Of a stretch of 21,597 bases of DNA, positions 781-18,448 are shown piece by piece (the first letter of the stretch is position 1; each line of letters starts with the position of its first letter). Position numbers and translations under genes: made by a program. This stretch comes from Candidatus Bathyarchaeota archaeon RBG_16_48_13 (GTDB taxonomy: Archaea > Thermoproteota > Bathyarchaeia > RBG-16-48-13), in the NCBI GenBank assembly GCA_001775995.1, contig MEZH01000004.1, positions 1-21,597 on the forward strand, in the 5' to 3' direction. The notes beneath the pieces are model-generated. The model was not told the DNA's origin, ran no database searches, and saw nothing but the letters and a program-made list of their open reading frames with translations.

Positions 781-1869
781 CTACCAAGGGTTCGTGAATA
801 GCTTCTTCATCAGGTCGATATCAACCTTCCCAGCATGATGAACCCTCCCCGTCCTGGTGTCGCTCAGCGACGCCTCGGCGACTACCCACATCCCCGCCAT
901 CGCTATGGCGCTGCGGATGCGCAGCCACGACTCCAGGTCCTTAACGTCCTTCGTCAGGTCCTCCATCGGCTGGAAGCTCCTTACCCTCGACTGGTAATAC
1001 GACCTTCCGTAGAGAGTGCCGTGGCTCTCCGTCGCGAGGTCCTTCACCATCAGGTCCATGTCCCACTCCTCTTTGGAGCGGACCCAGAAGTGCGCCCTGC
1101 CGCCGTAGTCTATCATGTCGTCCATCCAGGCGCACGGCTCCCTGAAGACGTTGGGCGATATGGGGCAGAGCGGCGTCGATCCCGACGCGTGCTCCATCCT
1201 CTCGTAGGGCACGTTGTGGTACTCGGTAAGGCGCCAGAACACATCCTCCACCCCGCTTGACGCGACATGTGTGACGCCCGCGACGCTCTCGGACGGCGTG
1301 ACTATTACATAGAGGGCCTTCGGCTCTACCCTGCACTTGTCGGCGATCGTCTGGACGAACTCCTCGTTAGGCAGCCCCTGGGCCTTGTCCCTCGTCTGGA
1401 CCACCACCACCCCCGCGTCCGGGTGCGGATCCCTGTAGCTGATCCTGTCCTTGAACACCCAGTCAGGATCCTGGGCCAGCGCCTTGGCGGGCCCCGATAT
1501 CCACGCAGGGAACGGGTGCTCCAGCGTCTCGGGCGGCGGAACTATGCCGAGCCAGACGAACTGGCAGACCCCTATGAGGGCTGGGAAGTTGGTGTGGCAG
1601 AACAGCGTCGGTATGGTGTAATCATCATAGGTGACATCAGTCACATGCGCGCCTCCGACCCCTCCGAACCTGATCTTCGTGATCAGCTCGCCAGCCTCAT
1701 AGCCCCCCGGAACCTTGACGCCGCAGTCGATCAGGGTGGCGCCGTTCTTCAGCTCTCCGACCTCGACCTGCAGCCTGTCGGAGTCCCGCATCATGTCCTT
1801 GACTATTCTTAGAGCAAGCTGGTTTACGCTTATCTTCTCTGCCCACGGTGGGCTCCAAGGTTCTACCAC
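781..1869 (-). CDS. Divergent methenyl-H4MPT cyclohydrolase (Mch)-family protein
   Basis: SVNQLA, NGATLIDCG, GGYEAG, SGPAKAL, LYVIVTPSESVAG, YGG and TGRVHHAGKVD follow Mch along its whole length. The catalytic motif is altered. The likely start is GTG at 1869, after SD-like GGAGCGTGA; the ORF track starts it at 1899. Confidence 0.85.
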   Translation of the reverse strand: MVEPWSPPWAEKISVNQLALRIVKDMMRDSDRLQVEVGELKNGATLIDCGVKVPGGYEAGELITKIRFGGVGGAHVTDVTYDDYTIPTLFCHTNFPALIGVCQFVWLGIVPPPETLEHPFPAWISGPAKALAQDPDWVFKDRISYRDPHPDAGVVVVQTRDKAQGLPNEEFVQTIADKCRVEPKALYVIVTPSESVAGVTHVASSGVEDVFWRLTEYHNVPYERMEHASGSTPLCPISPNVFREPCAWMDDMIDYGGRAHFWVRSKEEWDMDLMVKDLATESHGTLYGRSYYQSRVRSFQPMEDLTKDVKDLESWLRIRSAIAMAGMWVVAEASLSDTRTGRVHHAGKVDIDLMKKLFTNPW

Positions 1870-1912
1870 ATGGTTCACGCTCCGAAGACGAGCTGCCACT
1901 CGGTCCTGACGC

Positions 1913-2719
1913 CTAGTAAAGGACCGTGTACGGCAGCAGGACTATGTTCAAGATCAGCAGTATGATCAGGGACACGATGGCAATGTAATCAACGGTTTGG
2001 AATTTTATCTCCTTCACGAACGTCCTCTTGACAGGGGCGCCGAACGCCCTCGACTCGATGGCCACGTCCAGCTCGTCTGACCTCTTCAGCATCGCCAGCG
2101 TCAGCGGCGTCACCAGAGGAACGTATGCCCTGATCTTCTTGAAGAAGTTCATGTGCTCGAAATCGTAGGCCCTGAGCTTCTGGGCGTTGAGGATTTCACC
2201 CCAGGTCCTCGACATGAGGGGCGCGAACCTGAGAGCCGTTGAGAGGGTGAAGTTGAAGCTGTATGGGACTTTCAGCTTCGCCAAGGCCACGATGAAGGTC
2301 GAGAGAGGGGTCGTCATGGTCAGGATTGGGATGCTGAAGACGATGCACAGTATCCTGAGAGAAAGGGTGACCCCGAACAGGAAGCCCTCCAGGGTGTACG
2401 CCCCTATGTTCTTGCCACCTACGTTGAAGGTGAAGAGGGTGAAGAGCACCGTCTTGCCCCTCCAGTAAAAGAACCCCTGCACCAAAAGGAAGATCACTAT
2501 AGTTGTTGCCAGCAGCGCGAAAATGACTTTAAGCCTCGAAATCGGGATCCTAGCGACACCCCACCACGCCAAGATCACAACGAGCAGGATCGTCAACAGT
2601 ATGAGGTTCGGGAAAACTGACGCCAAGATGAAGCACATAGCCAAGAAGAACAGCTTCGTCACAGGGTTCATCCTGTGGACGGCCGTCTTTCCAGGCACGT
2701 ATTCAAGTATTGAAGCCAT
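1913..2719 (-). CDS. ecfT: ECF transporter transmembrane component T (copy 1)
   Basis: HRMNPVTK N-terminus, hydrophobic helices, ALRFAP, and the two X-R-X coupling motifs (KLRAY, ESRAFG). Confidence 0.92.
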   Translation of the reverse strand: MASILEYVPGKTAVHRMNPVTKLFFLAMCFILASVFPNLILLTILLVVILAWWGVARIPISRLKVIFALLATTIVIFLLVQGFFYWRGKTVLFTLFTFNVGGKNIGAYTLEGFLFGVTLSLRILCIVFSIPILTMTTPLSTFIVALAKLKVPYSFNFTLSTALRFAPLMSRTWGEILNAQKLRAYDFEHMNFFKKIRAYVPLVTPLTLAMLKRSDELDVAIESRAFGAPVKRTFVKEIKFQTVDYIAIVSLIILLILNIVLLPYTVLY

Positions 2720-2722
2720 TTT

Positions 2723-4438
2723 CTAGGCACCTCCATATGATGATAACAGGCCTTCTACCGACAATACGTTCGGCACCCCATGGTCCTTCATGGTTTGGGC
2801 GAGTTGCGTTATCTGGGGAGGCTTCAGGTAAGTCTTCTCCAGGATCCCGGTCTGGCTGAACACCTCTTCTGTCGGCCCGTCAAGGAGGATCTCTCCAAGC
2901 CCCATTACAACGGTGCGCTTCGCGTATTTCGCGACGAGGTCCATGTCATGGGTAATCATAATCACAGTGTGGCCTTTGTCATTCAGGTTCTTTGCGAGAT
3001 CGGTTATCTCGTATCGCCCCTTGTAATCCTGGGCGGTCGTGGGTTCGTCCAGAATTATGATCTTGGGCTCCATGGCTAGGACAGCAGCCACCGTCAGCTT
3101 TCTTCTGTCGGCGAAACTGAGTCTTAGCGGGTAGACGTTCTTGGAGTTCTCCAGCCCGACGGACTTGAGCGCCGAATCAACTCTCTTGTCTATCTCCTCC
3201 TTGGACAGCAGGAGGTTCTTGGGCCCGAACTCCACTTCTTCCTTCACCGAGAGGGCGAAGAGCTGATGGTCAGGGTTCTGGAGGATCAGACCCACCCTCT
3301 TGGCTATCTCTCCCGTCGTGAATTTCTTCGAGTCATCTCCATAAACCAGGACCTGCCCGGTGGTGGGCTTCAAGAGGCCGACAAAATGCTTCACAAGGGT
3401 TGTCTTCCCCGCGCCGTTCTGCCCGATTATCCCGACGAATTCTCCGTCGTATATTCTGACGTTTATATCCTTTAGGGCGAGCACGTTGCCTGGATAGGTG
3501 TGTGAAAGGTTCCTTGTCTCCAGGATCGGCGATCTGCCTTCCTCAGAGACCGCGGTGGCGCCAGCCGCCGGTTGAGTGCTGTGCGCTCTCCTCTTGTGGG
3601 GTTTAGGAATATCCGCCACAGCTTCCTGCAAAGTGATCGGCAACTTGTCGATCTTGAAGCCCTTCTTCCTCAGCTCAAAGCCCAACCTGGTCACGGGCGG
3701 AACCTTCACCTCGATCTTGTCTAGGAGATCGATCTTGCTGAAGACTTCGTGCGGATCGCCGCTTGCTATCATCTCGCCATCATTCAACAGGATTATCCTG
3801 TCGGCAATCTCTGCAACCTCTTCGCTCTTGTGCTCAGCCATCACGATGGTGACGCCATATTTCTTGTTAAGGTCCCTGACGACCGACAAGACCTCCGTTG
3901 AGCCGATCGGATCCATCTGAGAGGTGGGCTCATCAAGTACCAGAACGTCTGGGCGCATTGCGAGGACTGCGGCAAGAGCCAGACGCTGCTTCTGGCCGCC
4001 CGACATCTCGTTCGGGCTTCGGTCCAGCATCCCTTCCAACCTGACAGCCTTCAGAACGTAACTTGTCCTTTCGATGATTTCCTCTCGCGGTATTCCAAGG
4101 TTCTCCGGCCCGAATGCAACCTCCGTTTCGACGTCGGGGCATAGTATCTGGGTCTCTGGGTCCTGCAGCGCCATCCCGACCTTCTGGGCCAACTCATAGA
4201 CTGGATGTTCATCAGTTTTGAGGCCGCAGACGGTCACGATGCCGCTCTTCTCTCCCTCAACGACGTTAGGCACGATGCCATTCATGGTCATGCAAAGGGT
4301 GCTCTTCCCGGCTCCATTTGGACCCATTATGACTATGAACTCGCCCCTCTCGACATCGAAATTGATGTTCTTCAGGGCCTTAGCGCCGTTCGGGTAGGAG
4401 AACGAAAGATCCTTAACGGAGATTATGGTGTCGGTCAC
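2723..4438 (-). CDS. ECF transporter fused double ATPase (A-A'), copy 1
   Basis: Two nucleotide-binding domains: GPNGAGKS / MSGGQKQR / LVLDEPT and GQNGAGKT / LSFADRRK / IILDEPT. Q-loops LQDPETQ and LQNPDHQ are of the EcfA/CbiO type. Confidence 0.95.
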   Translation of the reverse strand: MTDTIISVKDLSFSYPNGAKALKNINFDVERGEFIVIMGPNGAGKSTLCMTMNGIVPNVVEGEKSGIVTVCGLKTDEHPVYELAQKVGMALQDPETQILCPDVETEVAFGPENLGIPREEIIERTSYVLKAVRLEGMLDRSPNEMSGGQKQRLALAAVLAMRPDVLVLDEPTSQMDPIGSTEVLSVVRDLNKKYGVTIVMAEHKSEEVAEIADRIILLNDGEMIASGDPHEVFSKIDLLDKIEVKVPPVTRLGFELRKKGFKIDKLPITLQEAVADIPKPHKRRAHSTQPAAGATAVSEEGRSPILETRNLSHTYPGNVLALKDINVRIYDGEFVGIIGQNGAGKTTLVKHFVGLLKPTTGQVLVYGDDSKKFTTGEIAKRVGLILQNPDHQLFALSVKEEVEFGPKNLLLSKEEIDKRVDSALKSVGLENSKNVYPLRLSFADRRKLTVAAVLAMEPKIIILDEPTTAQDYKGRYEITDLAKNLNDKGHTVIMITHDMDLVAKYAKRTVVMGLGEILLDGPTEEVFSQTGILEKTYLKPPQITQLAQTMKDHGVPNVLSVEGLLSSYGGA

Positions 4439-4455
4439 GTTGATTGCAACCCCGA

Positions 4456-4467
4456 TGAACGTAAAAT
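4456..4467 (-). promoter_or_regulatory. Conserved 12-bp element ATTTTACGTTCA upstream of ATPase 1
   Basis: 11/12 identical to ATTTGACGTTCA at 11736-11747. The two lie 18 and 19 nt from their ATPase start codons. Confidence 0.5.
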
Positions 4468-4490
4468 TAACTTATGACAGATTGGCTCAT

Positions 4491-4504
4491 AAAAAAAGAA
4501 AAAA
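4491..4504 (-). terminator. Oligo-T terminator T6-C-T7 after S component 1
   Basis: Plus strand AAAAAAAGAAAAAA, about 25 nt past the stop at 4530. An identical 14-mer follows S component 2. Confidence 0.7.
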
Positions 4505-4529
4505 TGTTGGTGCTCATCCTCTTTCAAGG

Positions 4530-5303
4530 TCACCAAACAGCTCTCGGGATCTTCTTCAGCCCACTCTTCTTTAGCCCTCTCAATATCGCCGTGCCGATAA
4601 TAGCCGCGACGGTGTAGAATATCGATGCCTGCCACCAGACCGCAAATATACCTATCCAGATGTTCAGAGACGGCGGAAAGACGTACCAGATGTCGTACCA
4701 GACCCAGCCAAGAAGATGTCCTATTTCCCGCGCAATCCAGGTTGTGAACCAGACCGCGATGAAGATCTTCACAGGGCTGTCGCTCCTCAACCATAGGTTG
4801 AGATGCTTGTACCCCAGGACGACCGTCCATAGAAGCCCTCCGAAAGCCACCCATACTATAGCCTGCCACATGTTGGGATCGAACGCCGGAAAGCCTCCCG
4901 CTGGTCCTGGCCATGCATACGGGATGAACATGAACATCACTGAGAACACTATCCACAGCGGAACCAGGTAGTACCATTTCCTGTTGGCCACAAGCCCTGC
5001 AGCTAGGGGAGGCAGTATCCAGCCATCAAGTATACCCAGAGCTCCAGTAGAGAAGGCTGCCGGGTTGATGAAAAGGCCTATGATTCCCCCGATCAGACCT
5101 GCGACGGCTCCTGCGAACGGGCCCAGCACCAGACCGGTCAGTGGAAGCAGAGCTGTAGCGAGCGGGAAGACCGCTCCTCCTTCCATGTAGTAGATCAGCG
5201 GGATGATTCCCGTTGCCCCCAAGATTGCACCGAAGATCGCAATCCACGAGAGAGGAGCGCCAAAAAGTGCGGCTCTCTGAGCACTAGTCTTGGTCTCTGC
5301 CAT
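4530..5303 (-). CDS. Putative ECF substrate-binding (S) component 1, unusually long (257 aa)
   Basis: Highly hydrophobic. AxxxA-like motif in TM1 (AIFGA) and an LGPxxGAxAxxIGG segment. Lies directly upstream of the ECF ATPase and T genes. Paralog at 11837-12595. Confidence 0.75.
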   Translation of the reverse strand: MAETKTSAQRAALFGAPLSWIAIFGAILGATGIIPLIYYMEGGAVFPLATALLPLTGLVLGPFAGAVAGLIGGIIGLFINPAAFSTGALGILDGWILPPLAAGLVANRKWYYLVPLWIVFSVMFMFIPYAWPGPAGGFPAFDPNMWQAIVWVAFGGLLWTVVLGYKHLNLWLRSDSPVKIFIAVWFTTWIAREIGHLLGWVWYDIWYVFPPSLNIWIGIFAVWWQASIFYTVAAIIGTAILRGLKKSGLKKIPRAVW

Positions 5304-5521
5304 TACTTACCACTCCCCTTCATTGATCTCTTAAGATACATCGCAACGACTACCAGGATGACTCCCACGACAGCCACGACCGCACCCATAGGAACGTTAG
5401 TCATATCAGCAATGTTCAACGAAGACACAACGATAGCGGCTCCTACTGCCAAGGCACCCCAACCGATCCACGAGAGAATCTCATAGCTAATATTACCAGT
5501 TGGTTTTGTTTCTTCTGCCAA
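5303..5521 (-). CDS. Small 2-TM membrane protein 1 (72 aa)
   Basis: TTG start with AGGTGA SD. Two hydrophobic helices. TAATG overlap with the S gene. Homolog in the same position in module 2. Confidence 0.8.
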   Translation of the reverse strand: MAEETKPTGNISYEILSWIGWGALAVGAAIVVSSLNIADMTNVPMGAVVAVVGVILVVVAMYLKRSMKGSGK

Positions 5522-5559
5522 GCATAGTCACCTAAAGATCATTTTTCTTTTGCAATCAC

Positions 5560-5568
5560 TATATAAAA
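5560..5568 (-). promoter_or_regulatory. TATA box of ECF operon 1
   Basis: Minus strand TTTTATATA about 40 nt upstream of the TTG at 5521, leaving room for a short leader that carries AGGTGA. Confidence 0.6.
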
Positions 5569-5612
5569 TTTGGCATCACGCGACTTTGGCGCCCATTTTT
5601 TACACGAATATG

Positions 5613-5619
5613 TATAAAA
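5613..5619 (+). promoter_or_regulatory. TATA box of the LLM oxidoreductase gene
   Basis: TATAAAA in the divergent intergenic region, upstream of the ATG at 5685. Confidence 0.5.
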
Positions 5620-5684
5620 TCTGTTGCGAAACGAAAAAACGTTCATCGCAAGGCTTTAAGATTCGGCCGCTCAACTGAATTCCC

Positions 5685-6698
5685 ATGGGCAGGATAAAGA
5701 TCGACGCGATAATAGCGCCAGAGTGCGATCTTAAGACCCTTGCAAGGCTTTCCAAGATGGCGGAGAAGTACAACTTCAACACCATATGGATGGGTGATGG
5801 CGCCTATCAGAGAGACTACGCGTCTTGCCTCACGATCATGGCTCAAGCCACCAAGAGGATAGGCGTGGGTTTGGCCGTGACCAACCCATATCTACGACAC
5901 CCCATCAAGAGCGCCTTGGCGATTGCCAGCGTAAACGAGATCTCCGGGGGGAGGGCTCTCATGGGGATCGGGGCGGGGAGCCTCGACACACTGAAGTCGC
6001 TCGGACACAATTGGAACATGCCGGTAGAGCGGATCTCCGACATGATAACGGCTGTCAGATCCTTCTTAAGCGGAAGATCGGTGGAACTGAAGACAGATAC
6101 AATAAGCATCGAGGGTGTGAAGGCCTGGATGCCGTTGATTAGCCCCATCCCGATCTATGTCGGTTGCAGGCGGCCCTTGATGATGAGGATGGCGGGAAGG
6201 TTTGCCGACGGTGTCCTCCTCGACAACGTCCCAATTGAATACCTGCCATTCGCTCTGGATCAACTCAAAACTGGGTCAGAGTTGTCTAGAAGGGATTTCA
6301 CCAAATTCGACGTTGGAAACCTCAGCATATTCGCGGTCTCCGAAGACAAGAAGGAGGCTATGAAAAGGGTCAAGAGGCACCTTCCATACGACTTTATCAC
6401 AATCTCCAAGAGGGAGCTCAAAGCCGTGGGCCTCACGCCGAGGGATATCGAACCAATGCTCGCCGCCCTACGGCGGCAGCTGCCGGAGGACTTCATGAAG
6501 GCTTCAGAATTCGTCACCGATTACATGGTCAAGAACTTCTCCACCAGCGGAACCCCTGAGGAGTGCATCAGGAGGATAAAGGATTATTCGAGAGCTGGAG
6601 TCACCAGGATCCTGCTCGGATTGCCCACAGAGCCAAGCGATAAGCCTGAGGAAACGCTGAAACTCGCGGGAGAATCAATCCTGCCTGAGCTAAATTGA
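5685..6698 (+). CDS. Luciferase-like (LLM) oxidoreductase, Mer-like, probably F420-dependent
   Basis: AEKYNFNTIW, AVTNPYLRHP, EISGGRALMGIGAG, PIPIYVG, AGRFADGVL and SGTPEEC are LLM/Mer motifs. F420 use is inferred from family and host type. Confidence 0.85.
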   Translation: MGRIKIDAIIAPECDLKTLARLSKMAEKYNFNTIWMGDGAYQRDYASCLTIMAQATKRIGVGLAVTNPYLRHPIKSALAIASVNEISGGRALMGIGAGSLDTLKSLGHNWNMPVERISDMITAVRSFLSGRSVELKTDTISIEGVKAWMPLISPIPIYVGCRRPLMMRMAGRFADGVLLDNVPIEYLPFALDQLKTGSELSRRDFTKFDVGNLSIFAVSEDKKEAMKRVKRHLPYDFITISKRELKAVGLTPRDIEPMLAALRRQLPEDFMKASEFVTDYMVKNFSTSGTPEECIRRIKDYSRAGVTRILLGLPTEPSDKPEETLKLAGESILPELN

Positions 6699-6746
6699 GT
6701 CAGACGACTCCCAGAGGAGGGCTCGGGGGAGAATCCCGGAGACGAC

Positions 6747-7739
6747 CTAAGGATTTCTCAGGATCTTCCTCATCTCTGAAAGCGAAATGTTCCCTTTTTC
6801 ATGGTACTTGATGTCCTTCTCTGTCCGCCCCTTCACCAATCTTATCGTCTTACCAACGATGTCCTTGACACTCTTGACGCCCTGCTCCTCCAGGATCTGG
6901 CTCATCTCGTCCCTTATCTCGCGGATCTTTTCAAAGCCGCCGGTGATGACAGAGCTCTGCAACCCTACCGCCGTCGCGCCGGCCATCATTAGCTCAAGCG
7001 CGTCCTCGCCGCTGTAGACTCCGCCTGAGCCGATCAGAGGCATATCCACCGCCTTTGCAAGCTTGTATACGCAGTACACGGACAGCGGATGCACGGGTCT
7101 CCCGCAGAGGTGCCCAGTCCCATCAGGACTTCCTATGATCGGCATGCCGGTCGAGACGTCTATCTTCATCGCCCAAGGACCATCGACAACCAATGCTGCA
7201 TCGGCTCCGGCCTTTCTCATCAGGCCTCCAACTCGTTCTATGTCGTACGCGTAGTTCAAATTGACGCAGACTGGAAGGTCGGACGTCTTCTTCACGGACG
7301 CAATGATCGCCCGCGCCTCGTCCAAGCTCATGTCCACGTAATTCGTTACAACGTGAAGCATGGCTGCACCTGCATCTGCAACCTTACCCGCCAGCTCGGT
7401 GTACTCTGCAATGGCTGACTTGGCCTTAAGGACAAAAATGCTGCCGATGATCGGAATGCCCGCCTTCTTCGCTTTAGGGAACTCCCGCTCAATCCAGTCA
7501 TCGACGCTCGATGCCGAAGCCGTGGTCGCATTAAGTATGCCCCCTCCCAAAGACGAAAGGCACGGCATCGGATCCTTGCCCCCCTTCTTCTCAATAGATC
7601 TGTTGATGACCGCTCCAGCCCCGTACTTGGCCGCCTGCAAAATGGACTCGCCATCCTGAGTCATCGGTCCGGGGGTGAGAATCAATGGATTTCGGAGTTT
7701 CAGCCCGCAAAACTCTACGGAAAGATCAACGCCCTTCAA
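6747..7739 (-). CDS. Divergent dihydroorotate/dihydropyrimidine dehydrogenase (PyrD class 1/PreA)-family protein
   Basis: LSVEFCGLKLRNPLIL, AGAVI, ILNA, PIIGSI, AGADA, IDVSTGMP, LIGSGGV and ELMMAGATAV match the family scaffold. The catalytic motifs are replaced. Confidence 0.85.
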   Translation of the reverse strand: MKGVDLSVEFCGLKLRNPLILTPGPMTQDGESILQAAKYGAGAVINRSIEKKGGKDPMPCLSSLGGGILNATTASASSVDDWIEREFPKAKKAGIPIIGSIFVLKAKSAIAEYTELAGKVADAGAAMLHVVTNYVDMSLDEARAIIASVKKTSDLPVCVNLNYAYDIERVGGLMRKAGADAALVVDGPWAMKIDVSTGMPIIGSPDGTGHLCGRPVHPLSVYCVYKLAKAVDMPLIGSGGVYSGEDALELMMAGATAVGLQSSVITGGFEKIREIRDEMSQILEEQGVKSVKDIVGKTIRLVKGRTEKDIKYHEKGNISLSEMRKILRNP

Positions 7740-7797
7740 GATTTTCCCTCAAGTCAGACAATGCTTCCTTTGATTTATAACAATTTCAAGCGGCATC

Positions 7798-7826
7798 CAA
7801 TCCCCGACGATTGTTTCAGGGGATTG
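7798..7826. repeat. Inverted repeat CAATCCCC-N13-GGGGATTG
   Basis: Perfect 8-bp arms (7798-7805 and 7819-7826) between the MFS stop and the PyrD-like promoter (TTATAAAT near 7773-7780 on the minus strand). Confidence 0.6.
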
Positions 7827-7883
7827 ATTTGGCCGACGTCAGTAACACCATCAGGCACGAAGATGGAGCCCTTCCGCGCTTCC

Positions 7884-9032
7884 TCATTTCCTCCTAACCT
7901 GAAGTATTAGGATCGAGGAGAAGGCTACGCTGCTAAGGGTGAAGAAGAGATATGGCCATGTCACCGAGATGTCAGCTATTATTCCGCCTATTTGCGATCC
8001 CAAGGCTATAGCCACTGTCAAGAAAGCGTCGAACAAGCCAATCATCATACCCCTCCTTTTCGAAGATGACTCGGCGACAAAAGACAGCGACGCTGGATAT
8101 ACTATGCCCAGGCCAACACCCAATATTATCAGGGAACACAAGAGCTGGATGTATCCGCTGAAGAAAGATATCAGCAGGACTGAGGACGAAAGGATCACAC
8201 CAAATGTGGCCAGGATTTTCTTCCCAATCCTGTAGCTTAGCCGTCCCGTTGCGAAGTTCGCTAAGATCCTAGAGGAGTTCAAAACTGCCAAGAGAAAGCC
8301 TATTTGAGCACCTGTGAAGCCTAGTATGGCTCCATACACCGGAAATATCTGAAACATGCCACCGGTTACGAGCCCGTAGGCGAAGATCGCGATGCTGGCG
8401 AAGATCAGAGAACTCTTCTCGAGATTGTCCAATTTCAAGAAGCCCTTACCACCTGAACTTGGATCATCTTTTGGTCTCGGAACGCGCTCTTTCGGTCTTG
8501 GCAAGAACAGCATTGGAATCAACGAGAACAAGCCGGCCGCGGCGAACACGAACGTTATGTTGATATCCTTTAGAAATCCCGCAAGCGCGGGTCCTATCAC
8601 CATTGCTGCGCCAAAGGTAGCGCTATATAGCCCCATCGCCTCCCCATGTCCAGACAACGGACTGCTATCAGCTATGAGTGATTCGATAGTGGGCCAATAA
8701 AACGCAGATGCCACCCCCAGAATAGCCCCTAAGAACAGGACTATCTGGGTGCTGTTTGTCCAGATCAACGCGATTGATGAGACTGCGTTGACCACCAGAC
8801 CCAGTGATAGGAGCTTCTCTCGACCAAATCTGTCTGAAAGCCTTCCCAACAACGGAGTCAAAGGTGCCTGAATGCCATAGTAAATGAGCCCTTGGAGCCC
8901 GATCTCGAACTGGGACGCGCCCAAGGCGAACATGTAGAGCGGAATCGCCAAGTAAATGAAAGAGAGAGCGATCACGAATAGGAAAACTACTAAATAGAGC
9001 CTTAGAAGGGAACGAAAGAGGCTACCACTCAT
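7884..9032 (-). CDS. MFS transporter
   Basis: Motif A GRLSDRFGR, a second-half GRLSYRIGKK, about 12 hydrophobic segments, and GPALAG. Confidence 0.92.
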   Translation of the reverse strand: MSGSLFRSLLRLYLVVFLFVIALSFIYLAIPLYMFALGASQFEIGLQGLIYYGIQAPLTPLLGRLSDRFGREKLLSLGLVVNAVSSIALIWTNSTQIVLFLGAILGVASAFYWPTIESLIADSSPLSGHGEAMGLYSATFGAAMVIGPALAGFLKDINITFVFAAAGLFSLIPMLFLPRPKERVPRPKDDPSSGGKGFLKLDNLEKSSLIFASIAIFAYGLVTGGMFQIFPVYGAILGFTGAQIGFLLAVLNSSRILANFATGRLSYRIGKKILATFGVILSSSVLLISFFSGYIQLLCSLIILGVGLGIVYPASLSFVAESSSKRRGMMIGLFDAFLTVAIALGSQIGGIIADISVTWPYLFFTLSSVAFSSILILQVRRK

Positions 9033-9058
9033 AGGGGAACGAATAGGTTGTATGCCCC

Positions 9059-9066
9059 TTTAAAAA
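9059..9066 (-). promoter_or_regulatory. TATA box of a probably leaderless MFS transcript, next to T-runs ending ECF operon 2
   Basis: Minus strand TTTTTAAA ends 27 nt before the ATG at 9032, and no SD is visible. Confidence 0.5.
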
Positions 9067-9100
9067 GGTTTGAAAAAGGGGGGAGCTCAGGCGGATCTGC

Positions 9101-9985
9101 CTAGGTTGGCAAGAAAGTCGGCGGCTTCGCCCATGAAGGAACCCACCACATCCAGTCTGAGGGGACGAAGTACCCCTGCCAATATATCTGGCCGTAGATC
9201 ACTAGAGCGGCGAACAGTGCCATCACTATAAGGAATATGTAGTCTACGTGAGTGAAACGAAACTCCTCGACAAAGGTCCTCTTGACTGGGGCACCGAAAG
9301 CTCTGCTCTCTATGGCGATTTCCAAGTCGTCAGATCTTCTGAGAAGGGACATGAAAAGCGGTGTCACAACAGGCACGAAGGCCTTGCGGACCTTGTCTAG
9401 ATAGCTCATCTTGTCTATGTCATGAGCCCTGAGTACCTGAGCGTCCTTTATGTCGTAATAAGTCGTGAAAATTAGGGGAGAGAATCGTACGGCTGTTGAG
9501 AAGGCGAAGTTGAATTTGTACGGGAACTTCAGCTTCTGCAAGGACACGGCTATTTGCGGGACCGACGTGGTCAGTGTCAGCAAAGGCACGCAGGAGAATA
9601 TACACACGATCCTTATGACCATCGCCAAACCGTAGGTCAAACCCTGGAAGTATATGCGCCCGAAGGGCTTGTCGACGGGCCAAAAGGGTATGTTGAATTC
9701 AAAGACCGAAATGTAGGGCCCTCCAAACATCCACAGAAGTGTCTGGGCAGCGACCCATATCGCCCCCGACGCGAGCATGATCACAAAGAGGAACTTGAAC
9801 CTGCTGAGCAATCGAGGTATTCCAGCCAAAGCCCATAATACCATGATGCTTACCAAGACTATGGCCAGGGAAAAGATGTCTCTCAGCCCAAGGGTCACGA
9901 AAATGATGTAAAGGGAGAAAAATACTTTCGTAATGGGGTTCAGCCTATGGATCGGCGAGTTACCCGCTACATATTCTATGGCCAT
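9101..9985 (-). CDS. ecfT: ECF transporter T component (copy 2)
   Basis: HRLNPITK, AVRFSP, VLRAH and ESRAFGAPVKRTFV. The last block is identical to copy 1. Confidence 0.92.
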   Translation of the reverse strand: MAIEYVAGNSPIHRLNPITKVFFSLYIIFVTLGLRDIFSLAIVLVSIMVLWALAGIPRLLSRFKFLFVIMLASGAIWVAAQTLLWMFGGPYISVFEFNIPFWPVDKPFGRIYFQGLTYGLAMVIRIVCIFSCVPLLTLTTSVPQIAVSLQKLKFPYKFNFAFSTAVRFSPLIFTTYYDIKDAQVLRAHDIDKMSYLDKVRKAFVPVVTPLFMSLLRRSDDLEIAIESRAFGAPVKRTFVEEFRFTHVDYIFLIVMALFAALVIYGQIYWQGYFVPSDWMWWVPSWAKPPTFLPT

Positions 9986-9992
9986 TTCTCTC

Positions 9993-11717
9993 TCACTTCC
10001 TGAAACTCAACGATTCTTTAAACTCATCTACAGTAATAATATCTTTGTGGACACCTTGCTTCTCAAGGGCTTGCGCAAGCTGACCTATCTGCGGCGGCTT
10101 CAGGTATGTCGTTTGGAGGACATCCGGCTTCTCAAAGACCTCGTGCGTCGGTCCGTCCAATATAACCTCACCGTTGCCTAGAACGATCGTCCGGTGGGAA
10201 TACCTCGTCACCAATTCCATGTCGTGAGTGATCATCACGACGGCATTTCCGCGTTCATTCAAGTTCTTGGCTATCTCAACTATGTCGTACCGCCCCTGGA
10301 AATCTTGCCCTGTGGTCGGTTCATCTAGTATGAATACGCTAGGCTTCATCGCGTATATCGCAGCCACCGCCAGTTTCCGTCTGTCTCCAAAACTGAGTCT
10401 GAACGGATAGGCCTTTCTCATTTTCTCCAAGCCAACCAGCTTGAGGGCTTCATCAACTCTTTTGTCGACCTCTTCTTTGCTAAGTCCGAGGTTTGTGGGG
10501 CCGAAGGCCACCTCCTCTTCCGCGGACTGCGCAAACAGCTGATGATCAGGGTTCTGAAGCACCAGCCCGATGTTTCTCGAAAGCTGGGCAGCAGTCTTTT
10601 TCTTTGTATCTTCACCTAGGACCACGACGTTGCCCTTTGTGGGCTTAAGCAGCCCCACGAAGTGCTTGACCAACGTGGTCTTTCCGGCGCCGTTCTGGCC
10701 TATGAGGGCGACGAACTCACCTTCATATATCTTGAGACTGATGTTCTTTAGCGCCACAAAGTCCGGCGGATATGTGTGCCACATCTCGCGTGTCTCGAGG
10801 ACCACTTTGTCCGAATGTGAGGACTCAGCCCTGTTGATCATGTACCCCTTCTTCTCATGGATCTTCTTCTCCTCGAAGAGCTTCGACAGCGCGGATATGC
10901 CCTCTTCAAGGGTTACCGGGAACTCTTTGGCCTTCTCGTGTTTGTTGATCCAGTGGAACAATTGGCTTACTTGAGGTAGCTTCACTTTCGACTCATTAAA
11001 CAGTTGCTCATTCTGGAATACCTCATGAGGGTTTCCGTCAGCCACGACTTTCCCTTCGTGAAGGAGTATAACCCTGTCAGCGAAATCAGCGATCTCCTCG
11101 CTCTTGTGTTCGGTCATTATGACGGTAATCCCGAATTTCTTATTGAGATCCTTCGTAACGGAGAAGACTTCGGTTGTCCCTATTGGGTCGAGCTGTGAGG
11201 TGGGTTCATCCAAGATTAATATCTTCGTCTGCATGGCTATTGCGCATGCCAAGGCGAGCCTCTGTTTCTGGCCCCCCGACAGCTGCAGGGGAGATGCCGC
11301 CTCCTTCCCGTCGAGCCTCGTGACCTTCAGGGCATAGGCGAGACGCTTGAGGATCTCCTCTCTGGGGATACCTAGATTCTCTGGACCAAAAATGACTTCA
11401 GATTTCACGCTGGGCGCAAGGAGCTGGGATTCCGGATCCTGTAAAGTGATTCCAACTTTCTGCGCCAAGTTGAAGATGGGCGTCTTCGTTGTCTGCAGCC
11501 CATCGATGATGATTTTGCCTTCATACGTCCCATTGATGAGGGATGGAATAACGCCGTTAAGGGTCAGGCATAGAGTTGTCTTGCCGGCGCCGTTCGCGCC
11601 CATGACTACGACGAATTCGCCCTCGTTTATCGCGATGTTGACGTTATCGAGAGCCTTCCTCTCCCCCGACGGATAGGTAAATGAAAGATTTTCTATTGTA
11701 ACTATGGGCTCAGCCAT
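9993..11717 (-). CDS. ECF transporter fused double ATPase, copy 2
   Basis: GANGAGKT / LSGGQKQR / LILDEPT and GQNGAGKT / LSFGDRRK / FILDEPT. Confidence 0.95.
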   Translation of the reverse strand: MAEPIVTIENLSFTYPSGERKALDNVNIAINEGEFVVVMGANGAGKTTLCLTLNGVIPSLINGTYEGKIIIDGLQTTKTPIFNLAQKVGITLQDPESQLLAPSVKSEVIFGPENLGIPREEILKRLAYALKVTRLDGKEAASPLQLSGGQKQRLALACAIAMQTKILILDEPTSQLDPIGTTEVFSVTKDLNKKFGITVIMTEHKSEEIADFADRVILLHEGKVVADGNPHEVFQNEQLFNESKVKLPQVSQLFHWINKHEKAKEFPVTLEEGISALSKLFEEKKIHEKKGYMINRAESSHSDKVVLETREMWHTYPPDFVALKNISLKIYEGEFVALIGQNGAGKTTLVKHFVGLLKPTKGNVVVLGEDTKKKTAAQLSRNIGLVLQNPDHQLFAQSAEEEVAFGPTNLGLSKEEVDKRVDEALKLVGLEKMRKAYPFRLSFGDRRKLAVAAIYAMKPSVFILDEPTTGQDFQGRYDIVEIAKNLNERGNAVVMITHDMELVTRYSHRTIVLGNGEVILDGPTHEVFEKPDVLQTTYLKPPQIGQLAQALEKQGVHKDIITVDEFKESLSFRK

Positions 11718-11735
11718 TTTACAATCAGACCTGCT

Positions 11736-11747
11736 TGAACGTCAAAT
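11736..11747 (-). promoter_or_regulatory. Conserved 12-bp element ATTTGACGTTCA upstream of ATPase 2
   Basis: Positional and sequence match to 4456-4467. Confidence 0.5.
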
Positions 11748-11805
11748 ACTCAATCTGAGTTCTAATTAGGCTTTGCGGTAACGGCAGAGCCGAGAGTTAT
11801 GATTC

Positions 11806-11819
11806 AAAAAAAGAAAAAA
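11806..11819 (-). terminator. Oligo-T terminator T6-C-T7 after S component 2
   Basis: Plus strand AAAAAAAGAAAAAA, identical to 4491-4504, about 17 nt past the stop at 11837. Confidence 0.7.
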
Positions 11820-11836
11820 GGGGTTAAATAGTGTTC

Positions 11837-12595
11837 TTACCAGACAGCTCCGGGTATTCTTCTGAGCCCGCTCTTCCTAAGCGACAGCAGCAACGGCACT
11901 CCTATTATGCCTGAGATCACCTGCAACATCACCCTCTCAAAGGGCACCGCGACACCAGATAGCACCGCGACGACGTAGGCCGGAATCGGGAAGTAGAATA
12001 GCAGCCACGTTGTCCAGCCCCACAGGTGCAATGATTGAGCGGCTATCCAGTGCAATAACATCAGGCCGAAGAACATCCTTGTCTTGTTGTCGCCCTTGAC
12101 CCAATCCGCCACTTTGCCTCTGCCAACGGTGATCAGCAGTGGGAACGATAGGCCATCGTACCAAACTGAAGCGGCCAAGAAGGGTTGTGGCAATGCACCC
12201 ATTGCAGGATATGTTGGCCAATACCACGGGGTAAGCTCGTAGAATACGATCCCAAATAGCGGTACCCACCATATCCATTTCCATTTCTTGTTCAGGATCA
12301 TGCCTGCCATGAATGCCGGTCCGATGAAGTTAGTGATCAACCCGTCGATGGTAGAGCCAGGGGCCAAGAACATACTGATCGCTCCCCCGATTGTGGCTGC
12401 AGCTGTTGCTCCCCAAGGTCCCAATAGAGCGGCCACTATGGCTATTACTGCGTAGCTCAGTGAGTGATATCCGCCACCCTCAACATAGTAGATCAGAGGT
12501 ATGATTGAACCTGCGCCTAGGAGAGCCCCCATCAATGCCACCCAAGATACTGGAGCTCCACCTATTGTAGCACTAGTTGTTTTTTCTTCACCCAT
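11837..12595 (-). CDS. Putative ECF S component 2 (about 252 aa)
   Basis: Paralog of 4530-5303, sharing GAPxSW, IIPLIYYxEGG, LGP, NxKW, HLxGW and KSGLxxIPxAVW. The likely start is ATG at 12595 after GAGGGTGA; the ORF track starts it at 12610. Confidence 0.75.
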   Translation of the reverse strand: MGEEKTTSATIGGAPVSWVALMGALLGAGSIIPLIYYVEGGGYHSLSYAVIAIVAALLGPWGATAAATIGGAISMFLAPGSTIDGLITNFIGPAFMAGMILNKKWKWIWWVPLFGIVFYELTPWYWPTYPAMGALPQPFLAASVWYDGLSFPLLITVGRGKVADWVKGDNKTRMFFGLMLLHWIAAQSLHLWGWTTWLLFYFPIPAYVVAVLSGVAVPFERVMLQVISGIIGVPLLLSLRKSGLRRIPGAVW

Positions 12596-12606
12596 TTTTT
12601 TCACCC

Positions 12607-12873
12607 TCACTCCTTTGGTTTCATCATGACGCCTGCGACGTACATCACCGCGCCAACGACTAGCGGGATAACACCCATCCAGCCATTAGCGTAAGCCATG
12701 CCCCAATGGTACTGCCAAGTCGCCGGATTCCACGGCGCACCGCCACTCCACACGTCCAGCGGCACATAAACATAGCTGCTGAACAGGACCATGGCACCCA
12801 CCGCAATCAGAAGAATACCGATCCACCGAACAATATCGTTCATCTTCCAACCAGATTTCTTAGCTTCTGCCAA
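12607..12873 (-). CDS. Small 2-TM membrane protein 2 (about 88 aa)
   Basis: Homolog of 5303-5521 (WIG, AVGA, SS, MG, VVG). The likely start is TTG at 12873 (MAEAKK, compare MAEETK) after GGAGG; the ORF track starts it at 12891. Confidence 0.8.
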   Translation of the reverse strand: MAEAKKSGWKMNDIVRWIGILLIAVGAMVLFSSYVYVPLDVWSGGAPWNPATWQYHWGMAYANGWMGVIPLVVGAVMYVAGVMMKPKE

Positions 12874-12969
12874 TTTTTCAAGTTCCTCCAACGTCTTTCT
12901 GGAGATATAAAACCAAAAACCTATTCTCGGAGCGGATTTTTTATAAAGCTTTCCGTGATAGCCATAATA

Positions 12970-12986
12970 TTGAATGATTCATTCAA
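12970..12986. promoter_or_regulatory. Perfect palindrome TTGAATGA-T-TCATTCAA, candidate operator
   Basis: Two 8-bp arms with a 1-nt spacer in the AT-rich region upstream of ECF operon 2, about 25 nt from TTTATAAA (near 12940-12947). Confidence 0.55.
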
Positions 12987-13073
12987 ATATTATTGCAAAA
13001 ATGATGAATAATTTGTTGCAAAAAATACTAATATAATACTCATTGGCGAATATATTTTCTACTTAATTCGACA

Positions 13074-13763
13074 TTATGTCCTGAATTTCTTCTGCACTTC
13101 CTCGATCCTTCCACACGTCAAGGCACCCTCTGGACAGTAATCCAGCTCGACGCACTCCGGCCCTGCGTCCTTGAAGATAGTGGGCGCCACCTCCTTGACC
13201 TGTCTCAGCATCTCCGTGGCCAGCTCCCTGATCTCCCACTGAGCTCTCTCGCAGCACCTGACCTTGAAGAAATGCTTCAACTCTCTCGCATTCATGGTCA
13301 ACAACACGTTCGTCTTAGCCGCGTTTGGCAGAACGTACCTAGCGTCCTCCAGAGGGATACCGAGGTCGATCAGCCTTCGGTACGTTCCGGATATCTTCTC
13401 CATCGCTTCGCCGAACTCCCTCGATGCCTCCTTACTCGCCTCCACGCTTATCGGCACCACGTAGTGCGCATTAGAATCATAAGGGACGTAGCGTTGACTC
13501 TGCTGTGTAAAGGAAGCAAGTCTGTGCCTCACAAGTTGATGCGTCAAGGCCCGCGAAACACCCTCCACGCTGAAAGTGAAAGTTGCATGTTCAATTATAG
13601 ATACATGACCGTAGCCCGTCACATTCTTGATGACCTTCGCAGCCTTTTTCGAGTCGATTGTCTCGAAGAGTTCTGAGGCTCCCTCCGGCCTGGTCGAGGT
13701 CAGCGCGGCCGCGGCGCAGAGCAGTTCAGGGTCTGGGGTGCAACGGAGGAGTTTCACAAGCAT
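13074..13763 (-). CDS. thyX: FAD-dependent thymidylate synthase ThyX
   Basis: Signature RHRLASFTQQSQRY, plus GHVSIIEHA, EDARYVLP, NARELKHF and AQWEIR. Confidence 0.97.
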   Translation of the reverse strand: MLVKLLRCTPDPELLCAAAALTSTRPEGASELFETIDSKKAAKVIKNVTGYGHVSIIEHATFTFSVEGVSRALTHQLVRHRLASFTQQSQRYVPYDSNAHYVVPISVEASKEASREFGEAMEKISGTYRRLIDLGIPLEDARYVLPNAAKTNVLLTMNARELKHFFKVRCCERAQWEIRELATEMLRQVKEVAPTIFKDAGPECVELDYCPEGALTCGRIEEVQKKFRT

Positions 13764-13922: not shown

Positions 13923-15794
13923 ATGTTAGGTGGCTACGCGGGAAAGATACTTCACGTTGATTTGAGTAAGAGGATGTTCAAGAAGGAGATATTGGATCCT
14001 AAGTTCGCCCGTGCATTTCTTGGTGGAAGAGGCTTCGGCGCCAAGCTCTTGTTTGATCATTTGGAGCCAGGGGTCGACCCTTTCAGCCCAGATAACGTGC
14101 TGATCTTCGCCACAGGTCCCTTCACCGGAACCAACATGCCCAAAGGCCAACGGTACAGCGTCGTGACCAAATCACCCCTCACCGGCGGGTATGGCGATGG
14201 CGAGGGAGGCGGACACTTCGGACCGGAATTGAAGTTTGCGGGCTACGATGCCTTGATCGTAAAAGGAAAAGCGGACAAACCGGTCTATATCTGGATCGAT
14301 GACGAGACCGCTCGGCTGGAAGATGCAACGCATATATGGGGTAGAGGAGTATTTGAGGCGGACAAGATCATAAAGGATGATAAAGCGGACAAGCTGGTCA
14401 GAGTCGCCGCGGTAGGCCCCGCAGCCGAGAAACTTGTGAGGTTCGCAGCCGTAACAAATGACTTATACCGCCACGCCGCGAGGGGCGGGGGGGGAGCGGT
14501 CATGGGTTCAAAGAACCTGAAGGCGGTGGCAGTTCGAGGGTTCGGGGGAGTGGAGGCCGCAAACACCGATGAGTTCAACAAAGTTGCTGAAGAGGCAATG
14601 AAAAAGACTTACGACAACCCCGGAAGAAAAGGCATGTACGATTGGGGAACCTGGGGGGGTGGCGGAGGATGGGACCTGAAACAATACAACCTCTGGGGTA
14701 TACACCCAACGCGCAACTACAGATCGGGATACTTCGAGAATTACGAAAAGATCTACGGGAAGAACTTCCGCGATAGGCTACTCCTGAAACAAAGGGCATG
14801 CTTTGCTTGCCCCCTGGCATGCGGGAGGCATGCGCTCATCCGGGATGGACCGTACAAGGGCACATTCGTCGAGGGTCCCGAATATGAAACAATAACGATG
14901 TTAGGATCTGATTGCGGAGTCGACAACATAGAGGCCATCGCCAAAGCCCACCAAATGTGTGACGATCTCGGATTCGACGGAATATCAGCAGGAAACGTAG
15001 TCGCATTTGCCATGGAATGCTACGAGAAAGGCCTCATCACGAAAGAACAGACTGGTGGAATAGAGCTGAAGTGGGGAGACCCAGAGGCGCAGATGGCCCT
15101 CCTGAAGAAGATAGCTTACAGAGAGGACATAGGAGACGTACTAGCGGAAGGAGTCAAGATTGCGGCTGAAAAGATTGGCGGAAGCGCACCCGATTTCGCC
15201 ATGCACGTGAAGGGACTACCGCTGCCTGCCTACGAGCCTCGAGGCGCGTTGGGACAAGCGCTGGCATTCGCCATATCGGATTTGGGTGGGTCTCACGACA
15301 GGGCTTGGACATACGGTGAGGAGATAACCAACCCCAAGCTCGACAGGTTCTCCACTGATGCAAAGGCGGAGTTGGTCAAGAACAACATGAGGATGAGGAC
15401 TCTTCCGGACATCTTGGGCTATTGCCGCTTCGTCCTTCTCAGCTATGACGACTACGCCAAGGCGATGGCTGCATTGACGGGGTGGAATATAACAGCAGAA
15501 GAACTGATGACGGTGCCGGACAAGGTCACAACCCTGACGAGGGCCTTCAACGTAAGGGAGGGGTTCGGCAGGAAGGATGACATATTGCCTCCAAGAGCCA
15601 TGAAGGAGCCGGTGGTAGACGGGCCTACAAAGGGCAGGATGGTAACCAAGGAAGAACTGGACAAGATGTTGGATGAATATTATCTGCTGATGGGTTGGGA
15701 CAAGGACGGGATCCCCAAGAGGGAAACCCTAGAGAAGTACGGCATGACAGATGTAGCTGAGAAGCTTACAAGCCGGGGAATATTACTCTCCTAG
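13923..15794 (+). CDS. aor: Aldehyde:ferredoxin oxidoreductase (tungstopterin AOR family)
   Basis: GKILHVDLS, KSPLTG, GPELKFAGYD, GAVMGSKNLKA, 4Fe-4S ligands CFACPLAC plus GYCRF, GPEYET, and DDLGFDGIS. Confidence 0.95.
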   Translation: MLGGYAGKILHVDLSKRMFKKEILDPKFARAFLGGRGFGAKLLFDHLEPGVDPFSPDNVLIFATGPFTGTNMPKGQRYSVVTKSPLTGGYGDGEGGGHFGPELKFAGYDALIVKGKADKPVYIWIDDETARLEDATHIWGRGVFEADKIIKDDKADKLVRVAAVGPAAEKLVRFAAVTNDLYRHAARGGGGAVMGSKNLKAVAVRGFGGVEAANTDEFNKVAEEAMKKTYDNPGRKGMYDWGTWGGGGGWDLKQYNLWGIHPTRNYRSGYFENYEKIYGKNFRDRLLLKQRACFACPLACGRHALIRDGPYKGTFVEGPEYETITMLGSDCGVDNIEAIAKAHQMCDDLGFDGISAGNVVAFAMECYEKGLITKEQTGGIELKWGDPEAQMALLKKIAYREDIGDVLAEGVKIAAEKIGGSAPDFAMHVKGLPLPAYEPRGALGQALAFAISDLGGSHDRAWTYGEEITNPKLDRFSTDAKAELVKNNMRMRTLPDILGYCRFVLLSYDDYAKAMAALTGWNITAEELMTVPDKVTTLTRAFNVREGFGRKDDILPPRAMKEPVVDGPTKGRMVTKEELDKMLDEYYLLMGWDKDGIPKRETLEKYGMTDVAEKLTSRGILLS

Positions 15795-15798
15795 AACC

Positions 15799-15810
15799 TC
15801 TTCCCCTTTT
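15799..15810 (+). terminator. Pyrimidine/T-run after aor
   Basis: CTTCCCCTTTTT a few nt after the aor stop. Confidence 0.4.
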
Positions 15811-15840
15811 TCAGACTTCATTTTGGCGGTTTGACCATAG

Positions 15841-16128: not shown

Positions 16129-16192
16129 AGACGTCTTCGTAGAAGTACCCCGTGCCCAAGAATCTGAAAAATGAACTCAGGCGGGTCCCAAG

Positions 16193-17578: not shown

Positions 17579-17595
17579 TGTGTTGCTAATTGCCT

Positions 17596-18405: not shown

Positions 18406-18448
18406 ATGCAGACATCCCTTAATCGTTCAATCTGGTTCGACCAAGTTC

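Follow-up and report, generated by a model that had tools for sequence, protein, structure and literature searches.

Two tandem ECF-type importers and diverged Mch-, Mer- and DHOD-like paralogs in a Bathyarchaeia genome: a tentative import-and-convert locus for an N-heterocycle

Introduction

Energy-coupling factor (ECF) importers are known to take up vitamins and metals. Two types are relevant here: the group I systems CbiMNQO, NikMNQO and BioMNY, which have a two-part S unit and in which a CbiQ-family T component and ECF-type ATPases are encoded with the S gene, and the group II systems, in which vitamin S components such as FolT, BioY, ThiT, RibU and PanT use a shared module. In this work we analyze a locus of Candidatus Bathyarchaeota archaeon RBG_16_48_13 (genome G000; 0.85 Mb, 16 contigs, about 75% complete), in which two such importers are interleaved with paralogs of canonical Mch (TIGR03120; 1QLM, 4GVQ), of Mer (TIGR03555; 1Z69, 8QPL) and of the class 1B dihydroorotate dehydrogenase (DHOD) PyrD and its relative PreA. 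We call the stretch under study the window; it comprises the initial 21.6 kb of contig C4 (MEZH01000004.1; 21,597 nucleotides). The Mch-, Mer- and DHOD-like genes are referred to as MchL, MerL and DHODL, and the S, A-A' (AA), T and small (sm) genes are numbered 1 or 2 according to the importer.

From its sequence the locus had been proposed to be an island for the import and conversion of a pterin, a cofactor or another N-heterocycle. Its parts relate to known families (ECF, Mch, Mer/LLM, DHOD), and the closest named homologs come from Bathyarchaeia. In the literature we found no description of this cluster, of its S family, or of pterin or FO salvage in Bathyarchaeia.

Results and Discussion

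Two dedicated importers with atypical S proteins

The window is predicted to encode two tandem, dedicated ECF-type ATP-binding cassette (ABC) importers, each composed of a T component, a fused A-A' ATPase and an S-fold membrane protein. AA1 exceeds both ECF equivalog cut-offs (Table 1). Sequence identity extends to all three pairs (34% between S1 and S2, 56% between AA1 and AA2, 43% between T1 and T2), which indicates that the whole module was duplicated. As predicted, the S components are both related and atypical, since neither S1 nor S2 matches a Pfam or NCBIfam family; S1 gives a weak match to the FolT-family model TIGR04518 (E 0.005). When the alignment-based AlphaFold model of S1 (pLDDT 81) was used in a wide structure search, the top 15 matches were all ECF S components with Z scores of 9.4–13.0 (FolT 13.0, BioY 12.4, ThiT 11.8, NikM 11.2, CbiM 9.4), and unrelated chains reached at most 7.4. 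A Foldseek comparison of the same model with the PDB gave nothing at E ≤0.001 (best probability 0.99, E 0.04). The S family is narrow: a search of 1.84 billion protein representatives gave 189 clusters at E ≤0.001. It was found in 86 of the 301 sampled Bathyarchaeia genomes. Of 80 related metagenome loci, 32 have a homologous small open reading frame (ORF) in front of the S gene. Prediction of a complex of S1 and sm1 returned a score of 0.04, which makes no call for or against binding.

The closest described counterparts are the group I systems, with which the locus shares the CbiQ-family T component, the ECF-type ATPases encoded together with the S gene, and an S-fold membrane protein resembling NikM and CbiM. 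The small gene for a protein with two transmembrane (2-TM) segments beside each S gene recalls CbiN beside CbiM, a likeness from gene position alone. On the other hand, S1 and S2 fall outside the S sequence families, have about eight helices in 257 residues and lack the metal-binding start of CbiM; in addition, A and A' are fused, the small gene lies upstream of S, and two paralogous systems stand in tandem. With the group II vitamin S components the S1 model has its fold in common, but S1 is 9–20% identical to them and about 70 residues longer, S1 and S2 have their own AA'T module instead of a shared one, and their gene neighbors are catabolic or ring-modifying and not vitamin-related.

Two more specific assignments were considered and downgraded. 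The first was a metal transporter of the CbiMN type: neither S1 nor S2 has a match to PF01891 (CbiM) even at E ≤1, and neither begins with the metal-binding Met-His with which CbiM starts. The second, suggested by a PF07155 lead, was an uptake of riboflavin and FO by S1 and S2; the same genome, however, contains a shared EcfA-A'-T set of the ordinary kind (C8:11728-14125) along with two canonical RibU-family S components. The permease of the major facilitator superfamily (MFS) follows T2 in all four related contigs, and its best NCBIfam matches are efflux pumps, far under their cut-offs.

A conserved core and a variable slot

On the minus strand the genes are transcribed in the order thyX-sm2-S2-AA2-T2-MFS-DHODL-sm1-S1-AA1-T1-MchL-DUF362, with MerL on the plus strand between DHODL and sm1. 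The spacing is tight: 3 nt separate AA1 from T1 and 13 nt separate T1 from MchL, and the sm genes overlap the S genes. We compared this arrangement with that of related contigs, three of which (JGI contigs P0004, P0021 and P0048) were compared from gene tables only. The P0004 contig, whose MchL is 77% identical, reads sm2-S2-AA'-T-MFS-sm1-S1-AA'-T-MchL and lacks both MerL and DHODL; beyond MchL it continues with ThiS, a three-subunit enzyme of the xanthine dehydrogenase (XDH) family, XdhC, MocA, a full-length DUF362 and PurH. Metagenome locus L043 (MerL 73% identical) reads thyX-sm2-S2-AA'-T-MFS-MerL-sm1-S1 without DHODL. L051 (Ga0315282_10080964; 85–91% DNA identity) reads MFS-DHODL-sm1-S1, and its MerL has been reduced by a 790-bp internal deletion (window positions 5856-6645) to the first 171 and last 53 nt. 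The P0004 contig, L043 and L051 thus share the core of two ECF importers and the MFS gene with the window. In the P0004 contig, the sole relative whose sequence extends there, MchL comes immediately after T1. The content of the slot between MFS and sm1 is different in each of the four related contigs. From this comparison the conserved unit consists of the two importers and the MFS gene, with MchL closing the run of importer 1, and MerL and DHODL are optional genes in a variable slot between the importers. Elsewhere, a 67% identical MerL ortholog lies amid unrelated genes, and a 66% identical DHODL ortholog lies at another locus between another LLM gene and a 467-residue Amidohydro_1 gene.

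The original prediction had placed all three enzymes in one pathway with the importers. This is not supported, as MerL is absent or deleted in relatives and DHODL is usually at another locus. Of the co-localization that it called for, the importer-MFS core, MchL after T1 and MchL beside importers recur on other contigs, whereas MerL and DHODL come and go.

A sceptical reading is that there is no functional unit at all, but a variable and possibly acquired region in which a duplicated transporter sits among spare paralogs of expanded families. With three Mch, about 13 LLM and three DHO_dh matches in 0.85 Mb, such families are indeed expanded, and none of the aligned LLM paralogs carries the Glu6 of Mer. 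The changing slot, the location at a contig end and the atypical GC content at third codon positions (GC3) point the same way. The genome mean of GC3 is 0.54 ± 0.085, compared to 0.82 in MchL and 0.64–0.80 in T1, AA1, S1, MerL, DHODL and ThyX; importer 2 and the MFS gene are nearer the mean. MchL also has a GC of 0.61, and in both measures it ranks first among the 628 genes with 150 or more codons. The pattern of the importer-1 half fits either a common foreign origin or a common expression level. By a rough estimate, one Mch, one LLM and one DHO_dh gene would fall within a given 13 kb with a chance of about 4e-4 if scattered uniformly, and the real chance is higher because accessory genes cluster. 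We nevertheless regard the absence of any unit as improbable: MchL adjoins importers of two unrelated types, with orthologs that are 49–77% identical, the spacing is operon-like, and LLM and XDH genes recur in the clade of S1 and S2.

MchL, an Mch paralog found next to importers

MchL scores 171.8 bits with TIGR03120, under the equivalog cut-off of 228.8, and 169.5 bits with PF02289, compared to 390–426 bits for full-length Mch in the majority of the order's other genomes and 296 and 269 bits for the two other copies in its own genome. Its true start probably lies about 10 codons inside the annotated ORF, because the orthologs are 362 residues long. The protein aligns with canonical Mch over its full length and forms, together with its relatives, a separate clade with a support of 100/100. 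The catalytic Glu (Glu186 in 1QLM numbering, counted on the alignment) is kept in the sequence GVEDV and is invariant in 14 of 14 rows of the clade. The surroundings have changed considerably: the Mch motif QxxxRxxE has become HxxxSxxE, with Ser in place of the Arg at the third position ahead of the Glu and His in place of the Gln (Q211H and R215S in 7/7 rows of the window subclade), the exchanges R139K, E168Q and D231P occur throughout the MchL clade, and of 37 columns that are invariant in canonical Mch, 20 are kept and 17 are changed. MchL differs from canonical Mch further in two insertions and in being encoded behind an importer. The usual partners were not detected in this 75%-complete genome either: three Ftr queries in tblastn gave no Ftr, and a PF01993 search gave no Mtd.

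Every member of the MchL clade that we examined adjoins an importer, which is of the ECF type in the window and in the P0004 contig, and an unrelated ABC importer dependent on a substrate-binding protein (SBP) in the bathyarchaeial loci L015-L020. This association with two unrelated importer types is the strongest evidence for a functional link. The MchL relatives at L015-L020 are 49–53% identical, belong to the same clade with full support, and form a sister subclade that keeps the Arg of RxxE, unlike the window subclade. They lie in a recurrent cluster of an M19 peptidase, the SBP-type ABC importer, a cog0402-type amidohydrolase (best models: 5'-deoxyadenosine, 8-oxoguanine and guanine deaminase), MchL, a diverged Ftr (162 bits vs. 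a cut-off of 297), a second diverged Mch, a MalK-type ATPase, an SDR protein and DUF2193. The window locus, in contrast, has no Ftr-like, amidohydrolase, M19 or DUF2193 partners. A 74% identical MchL ortholog has as neighbors an SDR gene, Ftr, an ABC importer, an XDH-family enzyme, form-III RuBisCO and R15P isomerase. DeoC and FGGY homologs (50% and 38% identity) occur near MchL both in L018 and in the window.

Gene neighborhoods of the wider S family

In a tree of S proteins, S1 and S2 cluster with those of L061 and L092. Three-subunit XDH-family enzymes adjoin modules of this clade or MchL in the P0004 contig, L092, L061 and L017, and their molybdenum subunits match xanthine dehydrogenase models best, under the cut-offs. 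In L092, which holds a 64% identical S2 ortholog, the three-subunit XDH lies directly upstream of sm2-S2, in the position that thyX has in the window; in the vicinity of L061 we found a class-III aminotransferase, an LLM protein, an XDH and an AOR.

The remainder of the family has a different setting. Among 34 related metagenome loci whose sequence extends to the T gene, 17 have a class-III aminotransferase gene next to the sm-S-AA'-T module, at a distance of up to 600 bp. Such loci include L057, L063, L071, L073, L076, L081, L082, L086, L100, L108, L109 and L128, and some of them also contain AOR or a 2-hydroxyacid dehydrogenase; an ECF module linked in this way may be a system for an amino compound. 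Other loci of the family have AOR, ADP-forming acyl-CoA synthetase (ACD), arginine-deiminase-family or SDR genes, or an XDH-like enzyme, nearby, and AOR or ACD homologs flank the ECF modules in L057, L063, L097, L102, L111, L112, L037 and L038. Aminotransferase, AOR and ACD neighbors represent a catabolic signature and not a vitamin one. The step from a vitamin-type importer to a cofactor, which the original prediction had taken, is therefore weak.

Could the importers simply bring in amines or amino acids for fermentation? The cargo would then be transaminated and oxidized via AOR and ACD, and MchL, MerL and DHODL would be unrelated neighbors. In addition to the aminotransferases, the AOR, ACD, arginine-deiminase-family, SDR and 2-hydroxyacid-dehydrogenase genes at other loci agree with this, as do the genes for AOR, a ThiS-like protein and ACD just past ThyX in the window. 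However, the clade of S1 and S2 stands apart from the aminotransferase-linked clades and has XDH, LLM and MchL as neighbors, the window contains no aminotransferase, and MchL lies 13 nt from T1 in the same orientation, an arrangement that is also present in the 77% identical relative. We consider this explanation unlikely for the window.

MerL and DHODL, diverged and optional

Alignment of DHODL to 1EP1, of MerL to jMer and of MchL to canonical Mch confirmed that catalytic motifs are changed in all three enzymes. MerL aligns with Mer over the full length of the luciferase-like (LLM) barrel (E 6e-52), but its 206.7 bits with TIGR03555 lie under the equivalog cut-off of 348.7, whereas three canonical Mer proteins of the same order reach 411–416 bits. 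For jMer it has been shown that Glu6 is catalytic and Asp96 binds the pterin, and that the E6Q variant has 0.4% of kcat left (PMC11094777). In MerL, Glu6 is replaced by Ile and Asp96 by Ser, Asn178 is replaced as well, and the motif LINAS has become LLDNV. Across the MerL clade, the position of Glu6 is occupied by Ile, Thr, Leu or Met, and the changes of Asp96 to Ser and of LINAS to LLDNV are shared by all members. What MerL has kept is the GxxVTNPY region around the cis-peptide and F420 site, and the genome encodes CofD and CofE.

MerL is one of about 13 Mer-like LLM paralogs, none of which reaches the Mer cut-off; Glu6 is kept in 0 of the 12 that were aligned. Examples are found at C12:50995-52050, C11:19162-20184, C1:56770-57774, C1:57798-58805, C7:26355-27365 and C7:44707-45699, and several adjoin Amidohydro_1, class-III aminotransferase, Mch or MFS genes. 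A probable Mer-like pseudogene at C7:47518-48567 is broken into three ORFs, one of which has an in-frame TAG; a gene for an MtrH-like methyltransferase (C7:48587-49489) and an MFS gene come directly after it. It had been asked whether canonical copies are present elsewhere in the genome. This is true of PyrD with PyrK; the two further Mch and about 12 further LLM copies are present, but none is a canonical Mch or Mer by score.

DHODL scores 159.9 bits with NF005574 (cut-off 269), 157.3 bits with TIGR01037 (cut-off 270) and 99.2 bits with the PreA model NF006183 (cut-off 335). The FMN-type TIM barrel of class 1B PyrD and PreA, with its GSGGV phosphate-binding and LNA motifs, is kept. Compared with L. 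lactis PyrD-B (1EP1), on the other hand, NISCPN has become LHVVTNY, so that the catalytic Cys is lost, and the orotate- and FMN-contacting residues Lys43 and Asn193 are changed to Asn and Asp, respectively. The domain search found no Fe-S domain in DHODL, in contrast to the C-terminal 2x[4Fe-4S] tail of its nearest relatives (35–43% identical), and no PyrK gene is adjacent. The canonical PyrD (motif ELNLSCPHV) and PyrK are encoded at C4:~40130-41833, 33 kb from DHODL; this pyrD is broken by a 12-N assembly gap, with pyrK next to it. A PreA-type paralog at C7:262793-263929 has the Fer4, or 2x[4Fe-4S], tail and likewise lacks the catalytic Cys motif. It is divergent from a class-III aminotransferase gene and is followed by AcnX, a nitroreductase-family gene and CofD (C7:262793-265452 and beyond). 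No DHODL ortholog above 39% identity was found in 300 Bathyarchaeia species genomes, and there is therefore no synteny comparison among them.

Cofactor background of the host

It had also been asked whether the host lacks pterin or F420 biosynthesis; the pterin, FO-synthase and riboflavin markers were indeed not found. With markers that were each detected in control genomes, the 75%-complete genome yielded no RFAP synthase, MptD-type DHNA, Pterin_bind/DHPS or MptA/FolE2, no CofH/G (FO synthase), no DMRL synthase (riboflavin), and no SHMT or FolD. CofD (C7:267994-268896), CofE (C7:245929-246579) and an MtrH-like gene are present. Within the order, CofD was detected in 4 of 23 genomes and CofH in none of the 23. 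A genome of this completeness would rarely miss all of these markers if they were dispersed, which makes auxotrophy for pterin, riboflavin and FO plausible, and the marker pattern suggests that the organism depends on external FO and riboflavin. The near-universal SHMT was not found either, and the absences as a whole may stem from the quarter of the genome that is missing or from overall reduction. As RFAP synthase was undetected in 19 of the 23 genomes of the order and Mch is present in 17 of 23, this marker may detect poorly in the lineage. Two other members of the order, G071 (98% complete) and G049, have a canonical Mer (411–412 bits), and neither CofD nor CofH was found in them; they may depend on external F420.

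These data bring up cofactor salvage, the reading that the original prediction favored, in which a host unable to make pterins or FO would scavenge a pterin of the methanopterin or folate type, FO/F420, or both through the importers, and ThyX, MchL and MerL would use or recondition it. Besides the absent markers, the presence of CofD, CofE, ThyX, the MtrH-like gene, three Mch and about 13 LLM genes would be in accord with it, as would the position of ThyX next to importer 2 here and in L043, the FolT match at the top of the structural list, in effect tied with BioY, and the weak TIGR04518 match. Several observations oppose it: the absences come from an incomplete metagenome-assembled genome in which SHMT is missing as well; the RFAP synthase marker may be poor; the two RibU-family S components with the shared EcfAA'T already cover flavin-type cargo; MerL has lost the residues that activate methylene-pterin; relatives of the S family lie beside catabolic genes; and XDH takes the place of ThyX beside the S2 ortholog of L092. 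Altogether, salvage of this kind has, in our judgment, a small chance of being the explanation.

Features of the window

The coordinates are compiled in Table 1. All genes named by the original prediction are present, namely the two ECF importers, the MFS gene, the Mch-, Mer- and DHOD-like genes, and thyX and DUF362 as borders; sm1 and sm2, which precede the S genes, are additions to its list. ThyX keeps the RHRxxS motif, which reads RHRLAS in the translation. DeoC and FGGY kinase genes also lie beyond thyX, within window positions 13923-19981. An ORF at 4435-4977 was rejected as a gene, being without a family match and out of frame over S1. A tRNA scan and an Rfam scan of the window gave no match, and hence no riboswitch points to the ligand.

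Table 1. Features of the window, in positions of contig C4 (MEZH01000004.1)
Feature	Position	Strand	Match or remark
DUF362 protein, N-terminal 154 aa, cut by contig start	2-463	-	PF04015 E 1e-27
MchL, Mch-fold hydrolase paralog, final gene of importer 1 run	781-1899	-	PF02289 E 1e-52
T1, ECF T component	1913-2719	-	PF02361 CbiQ E 2e-27
AA1, fused ECF A-A' ATPase	2723-4438	-	TIGR04520 520.8 bits (cut-off 315), TIGR04521 504.4 bits (cut-off 330)
S1, putative S-like substrate-capture protein, 257 aa, ~8 helices	4530-5303	-	predicted fold
sm1, small 2-TM protein, 72 aa	5303-5521	-	stop overlaps S1 start by 1 nt
MerL, luciferase-like (LLM) oxidoreductase	5685-6698	+	PF00296 E 1e-50
DHODL, DHOD/PreA-fold FMN-barrel paralog	6747-7739	-	PF01180 E 4e-28
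MFS permease, DHA1-like	7884-9032	-	PF07690 E 8e-52
T2, ECF T component	9101-9985	-	PF02361 E 6e-29
AA2, fused ECF A-A' ATPase	9993-11717	-	PF00005 twice, E 1e-59
S2, S-like protein, 257 aa	11837-12610	-	34% identity to S1
sm2, small 2-TM protein, 94 aa, Trp-rich outer loop	12607-12891	-	overlaps S2 start by 4 nt
ThyX, apparently canonical	13074-13763	-	PF02511 E 1e-70, 237.8 bits
AOR, neighbor beyond thyX	13923-15794	+	context; no claim of membership in the unit
ThiS/MoaD-like protein, neighbor beyond thyX	15841-16128	+	context
ADP-forming acyl-CoA synthetase (ACD), neighbor beyond thyX	16193-17578	+	context

A possible role of the locus

We hypothesize that the locus imports and converts an N-heterocycle of the purine, nucleoside or pterin type. 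The two ECF importers would take up one or two related compounds of this kind, and MchL, which keeps the catalytic Glu and has lost the neighboring Arg, would act on the imported compound, or on a product of it, by hydrolyzing or closing a cyclic amidine or formamidine. MerL is predicted to bind F420 still, without the pterin-activating Glu and Asp; together with DHODL it may reduce such a ring, although the unit would need neither of them. The MFS protein may export the product. In its favor are the tight spacing, the recurring importer core with MchL behind T1, the importers and purine-deaminase-like amidohydrolases near relatives of MchL, the XDH-family enzymes beside modules of the S1/S2 clade or MchL, and the high GC3 common to MchL, T1, AA1, S1, MerL and DHODL. 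This reading is a tentative one, which we consider possible without rating it as probable. The original interpretation is supported in part: an import-and-convert role is plausible for the ECF modules with MchL, and for MerL and DHODL it is unproven.

Several points weigh against the proposed role. A search of the window genome found no homolog of XDH, Ftr, M19 or SBP, so that the enzymes on which a purine reading is based are missing there. Most of the wider S family lies beside class-III aminotransferases, which suggests an amine or amino-acid cargo. The relatives that contain the ECF core are close (64–96% protein identity), and the conserved order may therefore reflect mere shared ancestry; gene order alone in such relatives is modest evidence. 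The presence of MerL and DHODL varies between relatives, and expression level, instead of common origin, could underlie the high GC3.

Implications

The genome apparently lacks the ring-building steps for pterins, riboflavin and FO and yet has enzymes that use or finish these compounds, which makes cofactor dependence testable. A more far-reaching idea, and one that we think quite unlikely to be correct, is that cofactor-auxotrophic Bathyarchaeia use the twin importers to acquire a pterin of the methanopterin or folate type, FO, or both from their neighbors, with MchL, and MerL where it is present, reconditioning the scavenged pterin-C1 species for ThyX. If so, an archaeal C1 cofactor would have its first transporter, and there would be evidence of a trade in precursors of tetrahydromethanopterin (H4MPT) and F420 among sediment archaea.

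Since Glu6 is kept in none of the aligned Mer-like copies, and Ftr and Mtd were not found, Mch, Mer and DHOD annotations in this lineage are not readable as genes of the Wood-Ljungdahl pathway or of pyrimidine synthesis. This problem bears on the metabolic reconstruction of the Bathyarchaeia, an abundant group. The S family described here, which has a small partner gene and a fused ATPase of its own, is spread through the Bathyarchaeia. Its usual linkage to catabolic enzymes raises the possibility that ECF systems also take up bulk nutrients in sediment archaea.

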